The position numbers and the translations under genes are program-made. From an uncultured virus (IMG/VR IMGVR_UViG_3300033752_000251) (Duplodnaviria > Heunggongvirae > Uroviricota > Caudoviricetes): 64,000 nucleotides of DNA. This document shows, in pieces, positions 1,231 through 51,837 of this stretch; position 1 is the first letter of the stretch; each line of letters opens with the position of its first letter. The stretch lies in the IMG/VR virus record IMGVR_UViG_3300033752_000251. The stretch is one strand, 5' to 3'. Under the pieces are notes generated by a model. The model did no database searches and was not told the origin of the DNA. It was given only the letters and a program-made list of their open reading frames with translations.

Positions 1231-2904
1231 ATGAGAGATTTCATAGCGAATTATGAAAACGAAAATGAAAAACGAATTAACTACGGTCTCATTACCCGCG
1301 AATACGATGAGGACCTCATTAAACTAATTGTAAACGCATGTAAATCATTGGAGGTCCTTGAATATATTAAATTTCTCGGTTATACATTCATTGAGGATGA
1401 GAAAGAGATTGATCTCAATGAATATATGACTACCCGTAAAAAATCCAGAAAGAAATCCGATACGCGCTACATGTACATGCAAGATAGCAGATACATGGAG
1501 CTTCGTCTCAAGTTCAAGCTGGAATGTAAGGGTGAGGAAGCGATCGTAACTAAGAAGCTTCTTATCCCAGTAGCTGACGAAAATGGCTACTATACAATCA
1601 AAGGTAAGAAATATCTTTTGCTCTATCAATTGGTAGATTCTTCTACCTATACAACTCGCCAGAATTTGACACTTAAATCTCTGGTTCCAGTAGTTCTTAA
1701 ACGTGTTAAAGGGGAGTTTGAGGATACCGACGGTAATTTTTATACTGCCCCCACATATTTGCTTATCTTTAGGAAAGAGATAGACCTTTTACTGATTTAT
1801 TTTGCGAAAATGGGTGTTACCAAAACCCTTAAATTCTTCAGCGTTGATAAAGTGGTTAGATTCGTTGAAGAAGAAGGGGATAAAGAGAATAACATCTATT
1901 TCAAGATAAAAAATAAACTATTTTTGGAAGTAAACCGTTATTTCTTTCTAAAGTATCAATATGTGCAATCAATAGTGTCCATGATTCTGCGATTTGTTAC
2001 AAATCGTTTGAATTATGAGGACCTTGATAATAGAAACTACTGGATTGAATGGATTGGAAGTATGCACGCTACCAATTCATATAACTACATGGAAAAAGGA
2101 TTAAATACACTGAAATTCATTGAGCGTATGCTTGATGAAACGACGAAAGATATTCTTAAGATCAACGATTCGAATAAAAAATCCATCTATTCCATCCTTC
2201 GCTGGATGGTCCAAAATTACAACGAACTTCGTAAAAAGGATAACATGGATTTGACAAATAAACGTTTGAGGTGCAATGAATATATTGTATCTCTGCTGAC
2301 AAAAGCTTTTAATGAAAGAATGAATCGGGTAATCGCTGCTGGTAGCAGAGTTACTCTGGATAAAGTAAAAGAAATCTTGAAGTTTTCCGGAAATATTTTG
2401 ATGGATCAACTCCATATATCCGGATTGCTTCGGTATGATGATCGCATTAATGATATGGACTTCTTTGCAAAACTTAGATTTACCTTGAAAGGTCCAAACT
2501 CTCTTGGTAATAAAAACGAAAACAATATTCCGATGAAATATAGAGGTATCCACCCATCATATTTGGGAAGATTGGATATCAACGTCTGTGGAACAAGCGA
2601 CCCAGGTTCATCTGGTATCATCACGCCTTTCTGTAAAACCGAAGGGTTGTATTTTGATGGAGCTCATGAACCTGAGGATGGTATTTTCGATTTCCAGAAA
2701 GAGATGTCTAAGAAACACAAAGAGCAGAACAAAGATATTCTTTACGTGGACCCGTTTGAGAAATGTGAAACGATTCAAGAACTCTTTGACCAAGAAAGAA
2801 ATTTAAGAGAAGTTGTCAGAATGTCGTCGATAAAGAGAACTGAGTATGACAATGGTTATCTCAGGGTCTGGATAAATATCAACGATAATGACGACGATCT
2901 ATAA
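1231..2904 (+). CDS. Multisubunit RNA polymerase beta subunit, N-terminal half (probably non-virion RNAP)
   Basis: IPVADENGYYTIKGKKYLLLYQL and RGIHPSYLGRLDINVCGTSDPG match RpoB motifs (IPLMTxxGTFIING..., RDVHPTHYGR); preceded by an early promoter. Confidence 0.88.
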   Translation: MRDFIANYENENEKRINYGLITREYDEDLIKLIVNACKSLEVLEYIKFLGYTFIEDEKEIDLNEYMTTRKKSRKKSDTRYMYMQDSRYMELRLKFKLECKGEEAIVTKKLLIPVADENGYYTIKGKKYLLLYQLVDSSTYTTRQNLTLKSLVPVVLKRVKGEFEDTDGNFYTAPTYLLIFRKEIDLLLIYFAKMGVTKTLKFFSVDKVVRFVEEEGDKENNIYFKIKNKLFLEVNRYFFLKYQYVQSIVSMILRFVTNRLNYEDLDNRNYWIEWIGSMHATNSYNYMEKGLNTLKFIERMLDETTKDILKINDSNKKSIYSILRWMVQNYNELRKKDNMDLTNKRLRCNEYIVSLLTKAFNERMNRVIAAGSRVTLDKVKEILKFSGNILMDQLHISGLLRYDDRINDMDFFAKLRFTLKGPNSLGNKNENNIPMKYRGIHPSYLGRLDINVCGTSDPGSSGIITPFCKTEGLYFDGAHEPEDGIFDFQKEMSKKHKEQNKDILYVDPFEKCETIQELFDQERNLREVVRMSSIKRTEYDNGYLRVWININDNDDDL

Positions 2905-2915
2905 AAATAGATTTA

Positions 2916-2951
2916 AATCAGGGAACCTTTGCGGTTCCCTGATTATTTTTT
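2916..2951 (+). terminator. Intrinsic terminator
   Basis: aatcagggaacc-tttgc-ggttccctgatt followed by a T tract. Confidence 0.8.
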
Positions 2952-2979
2952 ATACAATTAATAATTAGGAGGCCCATGT

Positions 2980-3558
2980 ATGTCTATTCTTAATTTTATT
3001 GAAAAACGTAAAGATGAAAAATTTATCAGGAATGTAATTAAAAATGGTGATTCCCGCGCATTATACGGGATTAAATATCCGTCTTTATCTAAATTTGATA
3101 AAGAAGTGGACATATTTGCAGCTTACACCTTCGTTCTTATTGGCAATTATTTCGATGTAAAATCGCGGGAATGTAAAGATATCAAAGATCTTTTAACACG
3201 GGTTGTTAATAAAGTCGATATTCCGAAGGATAAATTAACACCAATTAAAATCATACCTCTTGCCTTTTTGAATTGGCTGAATGAAACGGCTATTCCTAAG
3301 ATAATAGATCACCTTAGATACTATCACCTTAACCCCGATATTTTTTATGGATCATTACAAAGAGCTAGGTTTATAAATAGAATGCTTTACTACTCCATTA
3401 AAAATGATAGAAACAAAGATTACATAAGATTTGCGATAATATTCGGCATCGATCAATTTAATAAATTGATTAACGAAGTAATTGAAGATAATAAATTCGA
3501 GGTTGGTAAAGGTGCCAATATATTTATAGAACCTGAATCAGCAGGAGTTGTACACTAA
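2980..3558 (+). CDS. Hypothetical protein
   Basis: 192-aa ORF, AGGAGG RBS. Confidence 0.8.
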   Translation: MSILNFIEKRKDEKFIRNVIKNGDSRALYGIKYPSLSKFDKEVDIFAAYTFVLIGNYFDVKSRECKDIKDLLTRVVNKVDIPKDKLTPIKIIPLAFLNWLNETAIPKIIDHLRYYHLNPDIFYGSLQRARFINRMLYYSIKNDRNKDYIRFAIIFGIDQFNKLINEVIEDNKFEVGKGANIFIEPESAGVVH

Positions 3559-5466: not shown

Positions 5467-5542
5467 GCCGTCTTAGCTCAATTGGTAGAGCGTCTGACTT
5501 GTAATCAGATGGTTGGGGGTTCAAGTCCCTCAGGCGGCACCA
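5467..5542 (+). tRNA. tRNA-Thr(UGU)
   Basis: GCCGTCT/AGGCGGC acceptor stem, anticodon loop ctTGTaa, GGTTCAAGTCC T arm, encoded CCA. Confidence 0.95.
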
Positions 5543-5553
5543 TATACCTATCT

Positions 5554-5630
5554 GGGCCCTTAGCTCAGTTGGTGAGAGCAGTCGGCTCATAACCGATCGG
5601 TCGCAGGTTCGAGTCCTGCAGGGCCCACCA
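5554..5630 (+). tRNA. tRNA with CAU anticodon, most likely tRNA-Ile2 (lysidine, reads AUA)
   Basis: GGGCCCT/AGGGCCC stem, ctCATaa loop, CCA; body closely resembles Bacillota tRNA-Ile2 rather than fMet. Confidence 0.88.
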
Positions 5631-5647
5631 ACTTAAATTTTAATCGC

Positions 5648-5733
5648 GCCGGGGTGGCGGAATTGGCAGACGCACGGGACTTAAAATCCCGCGACTTCGG
5701 GTCATGGGGGTTCGAGTCCCCTCCTCGGCACCA
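5648..5733 (+). tRNA. tRNA-Leu(UAA)
   Basis: GCCGGGG/CCTCGGC stem, ctTAAaa loop, long variable arm, CCA. Confidence 0.95.
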
Positions 5734-30990: not shown

Positions 30991-31716
30991 ATGCTCAACA
31001 CAAGTGACCTTTTAACGTCTATAAAAATTGATTTAGGAATTTACGGATTGGTGATTCCGTTTGAAAAAGAAGATGAAGCCATCATCAATGTTCTTAGAAT
31101 AAAAACTCTCCCTGTTTTTAGCACTTATTCTCCGTATATACTTGAAGTGGATATGAATTTGAAGGAAATGAGAGCACTAAAGACCGACTATCAAGAATCT
31201 ATCTATGAATTACCTGATATTTTTGGCGACAATAAAATTCTTTATATTAGAAAGATTACTCCGCGTAATAAAATGCTCGGAAATGGATACTTTAGTCCCG
31301 AATTAACAGCAGACTATTACGCATATAATGATCTCATGTTAACTCAAGCATATGCAAACCTTCAATCTATTTCGACTCCTTCTTTCACATTCAAATTTAG
31401 ACATCCCAATCTCTTATACTTATATAATTTAACTACCATTGCAGATGAACTTAAGATTGAATTTGCATTACAACATCTAGACAATTTCGCATCTATTTCT
31501 AATTCGACTTGGCAATCTTTCTATGAATTAGCCCTTCTTGACGTAAAGATATTTTTATATAATGCAATGAAGCATTATACTGATATTCAAACGGCATACG
31601 GTAACTTTAGTTTGAAGATTGATGAATGGTCGAATGCTGAAAGCGAAAGAAAAGATCTCATCGAGAGATGGAAAGATGTATTCCATCTTGACGTGGATCA
31701 ATTTGTAATTGCATAA
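30991..31716 (+). CDS. Putative virion (neck-like) protein
   Basis: Late promoter at 30953-30964; position in the head module; function is inference. Confidence 0.55.
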   Translation: MLNTSDLLTSIKIDLGIYGLVIPFEKEDEAIINVLRIKTLPVFSTYSPYILEVDMNLKEMRALKTDYQESIYELPDIFGDNKILYIRKITPRNKMLGNGYFSPELTADYYAYNDLMLTQAYANLQSISTPSFTFKFRHPNLLYLYNLTTIADELKIEFALQHLDNFASISNSTWQSFYELALLDVKIFLYNAMKHYTDIQTAYGNFSLKIDEWSNAESERKDLIERWKDVFHLDVDQFVIA

Positions 31717-31727
31717 TAAAATGGAGG

Positions 31728-32180
31728 ATGAAAAAAATGTTTAATCCAATTCAACGTCTTTTGTCTGTACTTGTCGTGTACGCTCACAACATGAAGGTTC
31801 TTCATTGGAAAGTGACCGGAACGGATTTTGATCCTACACATTCAGTATTTGACGAGTATGCAAAAAAATTAAATGAATTTGTAGATGAAGTTGCTGAAAT
31901 TTGTATTCAATTAAATACAAATCCCGTTAGCTATAGTTTTGCATTAGATGTTTTGGAAAAAGATTCGTTATTTAAATATTTTATAGCCGATGCAGATAGA
32001 AATTATACTTCTAAGGAAGCATTTGAAGCGGCAAATGTTATGTTTGATACTATCATTGCTGTTTATGAAATGGTCAGTAAAAACCAAGCTATACCTGAAG
32101 ATATTCGAAATAAACTTCAGGAACATAGTTATTTTGTAAGAAAAGAATTTATGTATAAGAATAAAATGCGGCTAACATAA
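31728..32180 (+). CDS. dps: Dps/ferritin-like protein
   Basis: HWKVTGTDFDPTHSVFDEY...DEVAE ferroxidase-centre signature. Confidence 0.88.
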   Translation: MKKMFNPIQRLLSVLVVYAHNMKVLHWKVTGTDFDPTHSVFDEYAKKLNEFVDEVAEICIQLNTNPVSYSFALDVLEKDSLFKYFIADADRNYTSKEAFEAANVMFDTIIAVYEMVSKNQAIPEDIRNKLQEHSYFVRKEFMYKNKMRLT

Positions 32181-32220
32181 AAAATAAAGGATGGTATATT
32201 AACCATCCCTTTATTTTTTA
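32179..32220. terminator. Bidirectional intrinsic terminator
   Basis: A tract, aaaggatggt/accatcccttt stem, T tract; closes dps and would also end a leftward transcript. Confidence 0.75.
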
Positions 32221-32236
32221 CTAATTTGGACTAATA

Positions 32237-32910
32237 GTATACACCACCCGCCCGGCGGCCGCTGTGAAGCTCGCGGAGGCGGTGCATCGAAACCTGATCC
32301 GCGCGACTGACCAGATCGCCGAGTTCGTGTACGTGGCGCCGGACGATCCGAAATACGCTGTACTGGCCGGTTTTGTCATGGCGTTCAGCGCGATGGGGCT
32401 TTGGAGTGGAACGAAAAACATCATCGGGAAGTGAACGGGAAGAAACCCCGCCTGGCCGTGTGGCTGGGCGGGGTTGTTTGACAGTGGTATAATTAATACT
32501 TTTTGCGTATAATAAAGTTCAGAAAAAGGAGGCATTTCGCATGTTCTCTAAAACCAAACAATTCATAGGGTTTGTGCACAAGAAAGTTATGGATGATATT
32601 GAGAAATTCGAAAAGTTTTCAAAAGAACAGGATGAACGTTTTGATTCTATAAAAAAGCAAATGGAAAATTGGGATAAGAACACTAAATTGATTCGAAGAA
32701 AATAGCAATCGCCGAATCGCTGACTGAGCACGTGCCGGCGCCGAAGTGGTTCGTGGATCAATTCGGCAGCGGCGATCTCGGCGGTCTGATCAGCGATCCG
32801 CACTTTAGCCTTGAGGGCTGGGCGCGCGCTGGCCTCATCGCGTCGACGGTTGCGAATGCGAACCGCGACCAAAAGCGGCGCCGTCGGCCCTACGAGCCGC
32901 AGGACTTTAT
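32237..32910. other. High-GC mosaic of short foreign phage gene fragments (amidase, unknown, holin + terminator, small gene, endolysin C-terminal domain, tail assembly protein T)
   Basis: Hand count: 80/120 GC at 32241-32360 and 127/190 GC at 32711-32900, against AT-rich flanks; + strand translations are recognisable pieces of unrelated proteins. Confidence 0.75.
32541..32705 (+). CDS. 54-aa small protein MFSKTKQFIGFVHKKVMDDIEKFEKFSKEQDERFDSIKKQMENWDKNTKLIRRK
   Basis: AAGGAGG RBS; upstream host-type extended -10 TGgTATAAT at 32485-32493; too short for the ORF track. Confidence 0.65.
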   Translation: MFSKTKQFIGFVHKKVMDDIEKFEKFSKEQDERFDSIKKQMENWDKNTKLIRRK

Positions 32911-32933
32911 ACCAAATAAGTATTTCCAAAAAT

Positions 32934-32949
32934 ATAATATATAATTTAT
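32934..32949 (-). promoter_or_regulatory. Early promoter facing the mosaic cassette
   Basis: Reverse complement ATAAATTATATATTAT is identical over 16 nt to the promoters at 1154-1169 and 50251-50266. Confidence 0.75.
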
Positions 32950-32972
32950 ATTCCAAAAATATACCTTTTTAA

Positions 32973-33042
32973 CAAAAAAAATTGCGGATGCACATTTGAG
33001 TGCATCCGCTTTGAGGGGGGTTGGGGATGGGTTGGGATAATT
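32973..33042 (-). ncRNA. Putative ~70-nt late C-rich small RNA
   Basis: Late promoter AACA-taaagg-TA at 33042-33053 (-), C-rich tract, gcggatgcac/gtgcatccgc hairpin plus U tract; no ORF. Confidence 0.6.
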
Positions 33043-33110
33043 ACCTTTATGTTTTTAATTTAATTATTTTTTAGTGAAAAAAAAAATAAAAGATAGAAAT
33101 AAAAAAAAGG

Positions 33111-50319: not shown

Positions 50320-51837
50320 ATGAATAAGCAGGATTTTATAAGGGTTGATGAATGGGCTAAAGGAGCGAGTGAAAATGAGATCGTCTATAAGAATCCTAAA
50401 GACGAGATTGTTCGTTGTGACGGAAAGCTTCTGATTATTCCGTTTGATGAAATTTTCAAGAAGGGTAACAAAGGTTTTAACGTATTCGTAATCAAGAAAG
50501 ATTCGTATGTTAAACAGTTGCCCGAAATTGCTTTGTATATTAACTATTTCATCAAGTTTTACGATACGGATAATGAGCTGCTTATGGCTTACCTGATGCT
50601 CAAGCATCAAATCGACAACAAGAAAAAACGCATCAAAAGAAAAGTTTTCATCAAAATGCTTTACTCGGTATTGTTTACCGAATCGATGAAAGAGAAAATT
50701 AACCGTATGGTTGAGGATAATTATTATATCGACCTTAAGTCCAAAAACAACATCAAGTATGCGGAGACATTGGAATTCACCAATGAGCACGCAAAAATCA
50801 TGATGAAGATTTCAATGGGAATGAAACTCATGGTTCCGGTGTTGTTCCACTATATCAATAGGAATAACATCATCAAGGACAAAGAGACCCCATTGTTCAT
50901 CTTCTATGAACATCTGTTCTATATGTGGGACGACAAGGTTGATATCTATCTGAAACTTCGAATAACTGTAGAGTCGAAGATAAAACGGCACTATAGTAAT
51001 AACAGTGTCATATGGAATCAGCGGGAGATCATGGGTATGGACCCGCTTATCTATATGGACACATTGCTGAAAGAGAACATCATTTCCGAGACGATGGTGA
51101 AATATAGATTCCACAAAAACATCATCAGTTTCAACTCCGTTGTCTTGGATAAACAGCTTGGCTTCTTTTCAATAACACCATACAATTATACGATGAGAGA
51201 ATTGACCACAACGAAGGACTCAGAGGGTTTGAGCGGTATTGATAAGCTTGAAATGAACTCGGCCAAAATCGATGAGTCCTTGGTTATCTTGTCTTCTGTT
51301 AATATAAAGAAGACGATCAAAAAGATAAAAAAACGATTCGGTATCGATATCGACAAAGATGAGCTTAGATTCTACGAGCAACATCACAAGATCAACAAAT
51401 TTCAAGTTCAGCTCGTAGGTTACTTCTATGCGAAGTATTTCGGTGGGTATAGAGATATTAATCTCTTGACACGCTCTCAATATATCAAGCTCATGTTGAT
51501 ACTGAAAAAACGTCTCCAATATCAAGGATTCATCTATCTTCCTATGATCTTATCCGGAAACGTTGAAAAGCTTATCAAACGGACTATTCAGAATCAGAAG
51601 TTTCTGGAAAAGGTTCGTAACTCTCCGGTGTATCAATCTATTCTCCAAGAAAAATTCGGTATAGTAGTTGATGAGCTGAATAAAAACAACATTATCATAA
51701 ATCTACTCTCAATCCTTCTCAACTCTCATTTCACGATAGTGGATTATGATTATCCAGAAAAGCTTGGGAATAAGATTGAAATCAATACGCCGGATATCCT
51801 GTCTGATGAATTCTTGAACTTTTTAAATCAGATATAA
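50320..51837 (+). CDS. Putative non-virion RNAP promoter-specificity subunit (AR9 gp226/phiKZ gp68-like)
   Basis: ~500 aa, helical; early promoter identical to that of the beta subunit; two genes from the chaperonin as recalled for AR9 gp228/gp226; no diagnostic motif seen. Confidence 0.55.
   Translation: MNKQDFIRVDEWAKGASENEIVYKNPKDEIVRCDGKLLIIPFDEIFKKGNKGFNVFVIKKDSYVKQLPEIALYINYFIKFYDTDNELLMAYLMLKHQIDNKKKRIKRKVFIKMLYSVLFTESMKEKINRMVEDNYYIDLKSKNNIKYAETLEFTNEHAKIMMKISMGMKLMVPVLFHYINRNNIIKDKETPLFIFYEHLFYMWDDKVDIYLKLRITVESKIKRHYSNNSVIWNQREIMGMDPLIYMDTLLKENIISETMVKYRFHKNIISFNSVVLDKQLGFFSITPYNYTMRELTTTKDSEGLSGIDKLEMNSAKIDESLVILSSVNIKKTIKKIKKRFGIDIDKDELRFYEQHHKINKFQVQLVGYFYAKYFGGYRDINLLTRSQYIKLMLILKKRLQYQGFIYLPMILSGNVEKLIKRTIQNQKFLEKVRNSPVYQSILQEKFGIVVDELNKNNIIINLLSILLNSHFTIVDYDYPEKLGNKIEINTPDILSDEFLNFLNQI

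Follow-up and report, generated by a model that had tools for sequence, protein, structure and literature searches.

The 64,000-nt stretch of uncultured-virus DNA analysed here (IMG/VR record IMGVR_UViG_3300033752_000251; hereafter the window) belongs to an AT-rich (36% GC) jumbo phage of the AR9/PBS1 type and carries, to the right of a Dps/ferritin-like gene, an island of about 680 bp. This island consists of six co-oriented pieces of 35-272 bp set within one early transcription unit (Table 1). On the + strand the order is an Amidase_3 core, a holin end with a hairpin, a 54-aa gene, a YolD-like piece, an endolysin tail and the core of tail assembly protein T (tail T). Every piece reads in the sense direction on that strand and hence lies antisense to the putative early promoter that points into the island. 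The 54-aa gene is the sole intact gene among them. Morons, extra genes with a promoter and terminator of their own and a deviant base composition, have been described for lambdoid phages, and we use the word for this gene. Our inclination is to read the island as a recombination scar with one hitch-hiking gene, an unusually clear case of mosaicism and moron capture.

Donors of the pieces were sought by scanning IMG/VR with the two arm open reading frames (ORFs) and the 54-aa protein and then comparing the island with the fetched loci by BLASTN. The closest relatives of the pieces, at 85-99% nucleotide identity, are GC-rich temperate-phage contigs. Positions 32237-32312 have matches in three loci, L023 (96% over 76 nt), L006 (90%) and L005 (85%), and the L023 gene concerned is an Amidase_3 (E 1.5e-50); an Atlas look-up of this amidase returned Bacillota and viruses only, the name Paenibacillaceae in the original prediction having been a guess. 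Positions 32311-32480 match L005:3009-3179 at 95.3% over 171 nt, which takes in the holin end plus the hairpin. The 80-aa ORF of L005 at this place (2890..3132) is a holin (phrog_1299 at 3.1e-17), and, on the same strand, the match to piece A is found about 550 bp 5' of the holin end. In L023 and L006 the hairpin is identical and stands immediately 3' of the endolysin genes. The longest match, 32444-32715 against L023:2904-3175 (98.9% over 272 nt), covers the hairpin, the promoter-like elements and the 54-aa gene. L023 has the order holin, amidase, hairpin and then the 54-aa gene, an AT-rich unit amid GC-rich phage DNA, and L006 has a YolD-like gene 1.3 kb beyond the hairpin on the same strand. 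The pieces from A through holin end and hairpin to the 54-aa gene are collinear with the lysis-cassette ends of L005, L023 and L006 and so do not represent independent captures. The collinear part (amidase, holin end, hairpin, moron and YolD) could reflect deletions in a longer capture or an earlier prophage patchwork.

The right arm is composed of three further pieces. GC-rich contigs from two sequencing runs, X4 (3260 nt) and X8, match 32704-32738 only and are unlike the window on either side. This 35-nt piece, E0, agrees at 7 of 11 residues with the YolD region of an L006 ORF (4776..5471; Pfam YolD at 3.8e-16), with E 0.001 for a single comparison, and the flanks of E0, translated by eye, agree with the YolD-like assignment. 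Positions 32723-32834 match L010 at 91% over 112 nt and L011, L012, L013 and L015 at 83-86%; the tail concerned closes a Glucosaminidase endolysin in L010 and an Amidase_2 endolysin in L012. Last, 32828-32913 matches L014 at 89.5% over 86 nt and L016-L021 at 85.6%, the L017 copy of this gene being recognised as Phage_tail_T at 2.1e-21. The window's own fragments give weak family matches (Phage_tail_T, E 5.1e-5 and 24.1 bits against a cut-off of 25.9; holin, E 0.0097). With the exception of the 54-aa gene, the scraps are internal or 3' parts of their donor genes and none covers a donor start codon or ribosome binding site (RBS). Pieces E1 and F share a reading frame only through an extra G at 32820, which is present in the window, in X4 and in a near-identical record (G001), and absent in runs X7, X8 and X9 and in the donor genes; in most strains, therefore, F is frame-shifted relative to E1, and no coding fusion of the arms is conserved. 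A comparison with the phages in GenBank gave no match at the DNA level for either the locus or the island, and the arm ORFs compared as protein gave weak matches only (Geobacillus phage GR1 amidase, E 0.5; tail-T-like proteins, E 4e-3 to 0.8). As a separate observation, a C-terminal tail of about 45 aa, PAPKWF.DQFGSGDLGGLISDPHF.LEGWRALAVALRAQKA, is common to the L010-L015 endolysins, which have different catalytic domains; it is a shuffled module.

The base composition follows the pieces. GC content is 0.62 in the left arm (32237-32475), 0.65 in the right arm (32705-32913) and 0.30 in the middle, which makes 0.52 for the island as a whole (32237-32913), with 100-nt segments reaching 0.70. The original prediction, made from the letters of the window, had described a GC-rich chain of short pieces stitched together from fragments of other phages' lysis and tail genes. 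The sequence and coordinates of its island are as it described them, and its central claim holds, the fragments being traceable to named temperate-phage genes. DNA matches to donor genes likewise bear out the families it had recognised by eye, namely Amidase_3, holin, endolysin C-terminus and tail T. Its high GC content is found in the two arms and not, as it had stated, as 67% over 700 bp. The chain of short pieces stands with two amendments: what it had listed as B and C is one donor piece, and its E is two (E0 and E1).

Table 1. Positions in the window of the island, its pieces and junctions, neighbouring signals, and the contigs that bridge the joints
Feature	Position	Strand	Remarks
Piece A, internal Amidase_3 endolysin scrap	32237..32309	+	YTTRPAAAVKLAEAVHRNLIRAT; without start codon or RBS
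Pieces B+C, last 41 codons and stop of holin gene	32311..32434	+	in-frame fusion to A
GC-rich terminator hairpin of temperate-phage lysis cassette	32443..32475	.	inverted repeat I4
Sigma-70-like promoter elements of 54-aa gene	32478..32513	+	TTGACA, TGgTATAAT, second TATAAT; by eye
54-aa gene, intact, AT-rich moron	32541..32705	+	GGAGG RBS
Piece E0, 35-nt YolD-like scrap	32704..32738	+	found by contig comparison
Piece E1, endolysin C-terminal tail	32726..32834	+	VPAPKWFVDQFGSGDLGGLISDPHFSLEGW; temperate-phage endolysins
Piece F, conserved core of tail assembly protein T	32835..32913	+	LIASTVANANRDQKRRRRPYEPQDF; in donors just upstream of tape measure gene
Junction phage/A	32237-32246		GTATACACCA; 9 of 10 bases kept by X4 alternative form, then divergence
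Junction A/holin	32309-32312		G[G/A]CC
Junction holin end/moron			within shared hairpin stem
Junction moron/E0	32704-32715		AGCAATCGCCGA
Junction E0/E1	32726-32738		
Junction E1/F	about 32824-32834		
Junction F/phage	32906-32913		TTTATACC; common to donor and alternative form
Putative AR9-type early promoter	32927..32949, core 32949-32934	-	points left into island
Bidirectional intrinsic terminator	32186..32211	both	terminator scan; inverted repeat I3; after Dps gene
Terminator of upstream leftward genes	32984..33009 (33009-32984)	-	10-bp stem, then T-run; inverted repeat I6
Dps/ferritin-like gene	31728..32180		left of island; Ferritin E 2.2e-7
Bridging contigs, run X4	32190-32760; 32731-32935		
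Bridging contigs, run X7	31600-32473; 32447-32783; 32778-32980		
Bridging contigs, run X8	32325-32772; 32792-33061		
Bridging contig, run X9	31600-32915		

We located the joints by aligning the window with the donors on either side, and with loose contig ends. All seven junctions, both outer borders included, fall within 4-14 bases common to the two partners, these lengths being approximate and the donors relatives rather than the true templates. Microhomology at all seven is, read from the alignments, the mark of illegitimate recombination. Moreover, the six pieces of 35-272 nt are directly joined and have separate best donors, which is the pattern of a templated insertion, and the island-bearing contigs that we compared all have the same junctions, no intermediate forms being found among them. 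The only direct repeat at the locus is a 13-mer around the promoter; none lies between the pieces. Besides its place in the island, the 31-nt hairpin (32443-32473) occurs with other flanks, some of them AT-rich, in X4 and X7, at loose ends of raised depth, and it is perhaps a terminator module in wide circulation at which recombination is frequent.

The window comes from a metagenome, and the runs that hold the phage also hold temperate-phage-like contigs that share short exact words with it and continue as an amidase, a YolD-like gene or an endolysin. An assembler might have joined jumbo-phage and temperate-phage reads into a chimera, a possibility to which we give virtually no weight. Part of the stretch is present in 20 of the 24 runs listed, and at least half of its sampled words in 16; the runs represent 19 studies, and two of them are possibly the source of the window. 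The joints are bridged by contigs in four runs (X4, X7, X8 and X9) of four studies dated 2016-2025, which makes a chimera very unlikely and settles the concern, raised in the original prediction, that reads might not span the junctions. G001 (162,761 bases) is 100% identical to the window over 901 nt at the locus, and a 212,288-base IMG/VR contig is 100% identical at the island; both possibly share the window's source, so that their independence is uncertain.

In X4 a second form of the locus is apparent. At the left border one contig shares sequence through TATACACCA and then diverges; at the right border another sequence joins at 32906, with an RBS-like AAAGGAGG on the - strand. These continuations appear to belong to an alternative form of the locus in which the original early gene is perhaps preserved; 30 nt of it are known at each of the two loose ends. 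The contig depths (15.2 for the island form and 10.5 for the alternative left border, which together equal the 25.7 of the flank) are suggestive only, depth not being genome share. The two 30-nt ends were not found in IMG/VR, the window or G001, and a pattern search with the promoter flanks returned the phage's own contig only.

The origin that we judge on balance probable is illegitimate recombination at microhomologies, or a switching of templates, between the jumbo phage and the DNA of temperate phages in the host they shared; this would have filled the early unit with passenger DNA and an intact moron. The jumbo phage would have replicated in a cell that also held temperate-phage DNA, and a break or stalled fork in the early unit would have been repaired by microhomology-primed copying. 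Such copying would have switched template several times, in a manner like microhomology-mediated break-induced replication (MMBIR), before rejoining the phage, and microhomology deletions may have followed. Whatever early gene the promoter had served would have been replaced. The GC-rich scraps would be passenger DNA, the early promoter, if active, would now make an antisense non-coding RNA as a by-product, and any selected function would lie in the 54-aa protein.

Several observations weigh against this account. The sampled donors each hold at most two pieces; the 30.7-kb contig of L023 (G002), for example, has only piece A and the moron. Since no sampled donor has more than two, one or several events and one or several donors fit equally. 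If the six pieces were independent, their co-orientation would have a chance of 1 in 32, which chance fits only moderately; it follows naturally if the templates were the co-oriented late genes of one molecule. The island persists with all its junctions intact in runs spanning the dates given above, and its arms do not look like fast-decaying junk: in the phage contigs compared, we counted 2 sites that vary over about 450 nt of the arms and 5-6 in the dps gene (453 nt), numbers too small to test. The alternative form rests on two loose ends of 30 nt each. Finally, YolD, endolysin tail and tail T stand in the reverse of temperate-phage gene order. This backward order rules out the simple trimming of one linear capture as the sole mechanism, and it calls for template switching or for a concatemeric or second template.

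The patchwork might instead have been assembled beforehand in the host, whether in a prophage undergoing decay, in a satellite or in a temperate phage of mosaic make-up, and then taken up in a single two-ended microhomology event, which we think unlikely. Functionally this is the same as recombination directly with the jumbo phage (passenger DNA plus a moron) and only the origin differs. It would account for the collinearity of amidase, holin end, hairpin, moron and YolD with the sampled lysis-cassette ends, and it needs the jumbo phage at the two outer joints only, both of which have 8-10 nt of microhomology. Temperate phages are, moreover, mosaic, and L005, L006 and L023 share the amidase and hairpin and differ around them. 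Against such a precursor, the inner junctions are confined within IMG/VR to the jumbo-phage contig: scans with the junction peptide patterns RATDQIAE and EGWARAGL, and with DNA patterns across E1/F and E0/E1, returned that contig only. Nor does the 54-aa gene occur in any representative bacterial genome, the scan of species representatives giving one irrelevant locus (48% over 25 residues), and among the metagenome contigs of the Joint Genome Institute (JGI) it was found, at scan sensitivity, in the phage's own contig only. In all, no contiguous donor was found in IMG/VR, the representative bacterial genomes or the JGI metagenome contigs, collections that are incomplete and thin for these phages, the bacterial genomes having been scanned with the 54-aa gene and not the whole island.

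The jumbo phage itself encodes split RNA-polymerase-like genes. Compared with the superfamily-II helicases of Bacillus phages AR9, PBS1 and their relatives, its own reaches no more than 36% identity, and these phages are too distant for a comparison of the locus. An IMG/VR scan with Dps for relatives of the locus returned the phage's own contig only.

As the only intact gene, the moron deserves separate treatment. Its sigma-70-like promoter elements, found by eye, are kept in L023 and do not appear in the list of the consensus scan, which omitted them because of their hexamer spacing. A terminator scan of the window found none after the gene. Two homologues, each at 76% identity, keep the length of 54 aa and the charge pattern, and a homologue at 46% has 47 aa. 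The family is tiny, with 4 hits among 1.84 billion representatives, one of which (a repetitive protein of 1083 aa) we discounted, and four clusters in a set of 5.8 billion proteins. In the structure model the protein is a single long helix spanning residues 2-53 (predicted local distance difference test score, pLDDT, 89.8). A candidate assignment as ZorA (PADLOC, E 0.0022) was rejected as a chance match of coiled-coil type, obtained for one of three family members.

Behind the lysis cassette of the temperate phages, the slot that in L023 holds the 54-aa gene is occupied in L006 by genes that include a ThsB-TIR-like one, and in L005 by none of these. The L006 gene (3653..4081, - strand), of the kind known from Thoeris, lies just past the hairpin and matches Pfam ThsB_TIR at 1.3e-17. 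Its presence there identifies the slot as an accessory-gene hotspot of these temperate phages. It is tentatively possible, therefore, that the 54-aa moron was the selected cargo, for instance as a small helical protein useful to the phages of the host, and that the scraps came along with it. The gene is intact and has retained its RBS and promoter elements, and the conservation of length and charge pattern at 76% identity also speaks for this reading. On the other side, the protein matches no Pfam family, its ZorA match was discounted, and convergent early transcription would oppose the gene. AR9-like phages are, in addition, reported to use their own RNA polymerases (PMC5312081), and a sigma-70-type promoter may be little used in such a phage. 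Selection for the moron is compatible with the microhomology origin that we favour, not opposed to it.

We next consider transcription of the island. The 16-nt core of the putative early promoter occurs exactly at three sites in the window, and seven sites match it with at most 2 mismatches, against 0.45 expected. Each of the other two exact copies precedes a + strand gene (at 1231 and at 50320) by 54-60 nt, and these genes match phrog_2943 'polymerase' and phrog_25005 'RNA polymerase'; the four other aligned motif sites have an RBS and a start codon 25-60 nt downstream. The island promoter, by contrast with these, precedes no ORF, and the strand read from it has no usable one, its long - strand frame being without a start codon. 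For AR9, PMC5312081 gives the early-promoter consensus as AAATATATATTAT-(6N)-G(+1). The - strand at the island reads AATTATATATTAT-ATTTTT-G and thus agrees at 12 of 13 positions of that consensus, whose +1 spacing puts the predicted start site at the G at 32927 (PMC5312081). The deviating T is common to four of the five aligned phage sites; the site upstream of 34221 deviates one position earlier. With a putative early promoter on its right, a terminator on its left and the upstream genes terminated before they reach it, the island fills a discrete leftward early unit. These results support three claims of the original prediction, namely that the leftward promoter is identical over 16 nt to the early promoters of two RNA polymerase genes, that the terminator on the island's left is bidirectional (the scan finds it on both strands) and that the island lies antisense behind an early-promoter motif.

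Two features of the surrounding sequence may be recorded here. The 13-nt direct repeat TTCCAAAAATATA stands on both sides of the promoter core (32924-32963), and the promoter region accordingly resembles a partial tandem duplication. A G-rich tract, GAGGGGGGTTGGGGATGGGTTGGG, unusual in an AT-rich genome, occupies 33010-33035, directly past the - strand terminator hairpin.

This arrangement raises the question of whether the antisense RNA does anything. If the promoter is active, it would yield an RNA of about 0.45-0.7 kb complementary to the amidase, holin, moron, YolD, endolysin and tail T mRNAs of co-resident temperate phages; that such an RNA is the point of the island seems to us improbable. 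That it would blunt the lysis, assembly or moron function of rivals during the long infection cycle of a jumbo phage is just as doubtful. Certain facts do fit. The motif points inward and agrees with other early promoters of the phage as well as with the consensus for AR9 (PMC5312081), the unit is bounded by terminators, and all pieces are antisense to the promoter. Over 35-272 nt the pieces are 85-99% complementary to the sampled temperate phages, and such phages are present in the same runs, although any scrap of this kind necessarily has extended complementarity to a target's sense strand. For the moron the complementarity spans the whole gene together with its RBS; the island has been kept in runs of four studies from 2016 to 2025, and variable sites are no more numerous in the arms than in the dps gene (2 against 5-6, again too few to test).

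Other facts speak against the idea. Joints lying in microhomology throughout are to be expected of an accident, the 162 kb contain no second island, and the scraps other than the moron cover no donor start site. A strong hairpin (32443-32475) separates the promoter from the scraps of holin and amidase. The moron has an intact ORF and promoter of its own, which would be odd if the moron mRNA were the target, and an island-free alternative form apparently coexists in X4. The original prediction had gone further and seen a deliberate capture of rival genes in a 'memory' array, of which there is no sign: the joints are all of microhomology, the island is single, and it shows no repeats or processing signals. 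Searches of Rfam gave no match above any gathering score, and in titles and abstract openings of the literature no lytic phage is described that uses captured prophage scraps as antisense RNA. Two further items were set aside and count neither way. A fold of the putative 748-nt antisense RNA has z = -4.9 against 20 shuffles, which we rejected as evidence because the sequence contains two terminators and blocks of 30% and 65% GC that shuffling blends. An RNA-library contig of X9, 6508 nt in length, stops at 32915, within the unit and 12 nt short of the predicted start, with low cover rightward; coming from one study, unstranded and possibly including DNA, it was not counted as evidence of a transcript.

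Were the idea nonetheless right, the island would amount to a repeat-less, protein-free form of interference between phages by RNA pairing. Vibrio phage ICP1 reportedly carries a CRISPR (clustered regularly interspaced short palindromic repeats) array aimed at the phage-inducible chromosomal island-like element PLE. The likeness, on the antisense idea, would be that of a phage-carried record of rivals used against them; the island differs in having no repeats and no sign of ordered acquisition, and in consisting of directly joined pieces of 35-272 nt at one locus. Another parallel lies in AR9, where seven late promoters are described as driving antisense transcription (PMC5312081). There, too, a jumbo phage of the group makes antisense RNAs from its own promoters, but those come from late promoters and concern the phage's own genes, whereas here a putative early-promoter RNA would face foreign scraps. 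Should a by-product antisense RNA prove to act on the donors, phages would be interfering with one another in a new way; the present evidence is not in favour of it.

The recombination scar that we prefer also has known counterparts. The moron likeness is seen on both sides of the transfer: in L023 the 54-aa gene is an AT-rich unit with promoter-like elements after the lysis-cassette terminator, in a slot that varies among relatives, and in the jumbo phage the island is an insertion of foreign composition between conserved genes. It differs from a typical moron in that the gene has moved from a temperate to a lytic jumbo phage together with broken scraps of near and distant late genes, and in that it now lies inside, and opposed to, an early transcription unit of the phage. 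Rearrangements by MMBIR or by fork stalling and template switching (FoSTeS) have been described mainly in eukaryotes and Escherichia coli. As in these, short templated segments are chained with a microhomology at each switch, the jumps go both forward and backward, and the original sequence would have been replaced; here, however, the templates are the genomes of other phages rather than nearby sequence of the same replicon, and the process is deduced from its product. Phage mosaicism through illegitimate recombination at short shared sequences is discussed in PMC2327257. The island resembles such mosaics in that its novel joints lie in a few shared bases irrespective of gene borders, and differs from them in having six or seven joints in 680 bp and pieces as short as 35 nt. 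In joint density it resembles multi-template 'filler' insertions more than ordinary module exchange.

Elsewhere in the genome nothing comparable was seen. Neither the window nor G001 with its 162,761 bases has a second stretch of at least 0.66 GC; where GC is otherwise raised, the sequence belongs to long phage ORFs (capsid, sheath and a fibre-like gene) or to tRNA genes. Among the latter is a cluster at 5467-5733 of the window (Thr-tgt, Met-cat and Leu-taa). The fibre-like ORF, of 718 aa (L035; G001:C1:155650-157803), has a 500-bp stretch that reaches 0.65 GC and could be a receptor-binding part taken from GC-richer phages.

The island is thus an unusually clean natural record of a lytic giant phage acquiring DNA from temperate phages of the same host. 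Its value lies in the seven microhomology joints within 680 bp, in donors that can be named gene by gene and in the apparent alternative form of the locus. It documents gene flow, in the shape of a small moron, from temperate to jumbo phages, and it indicates that filler insertions drawn from several templates, familiar chiefly from cellular genomes, have a part in the evolution of phages too.

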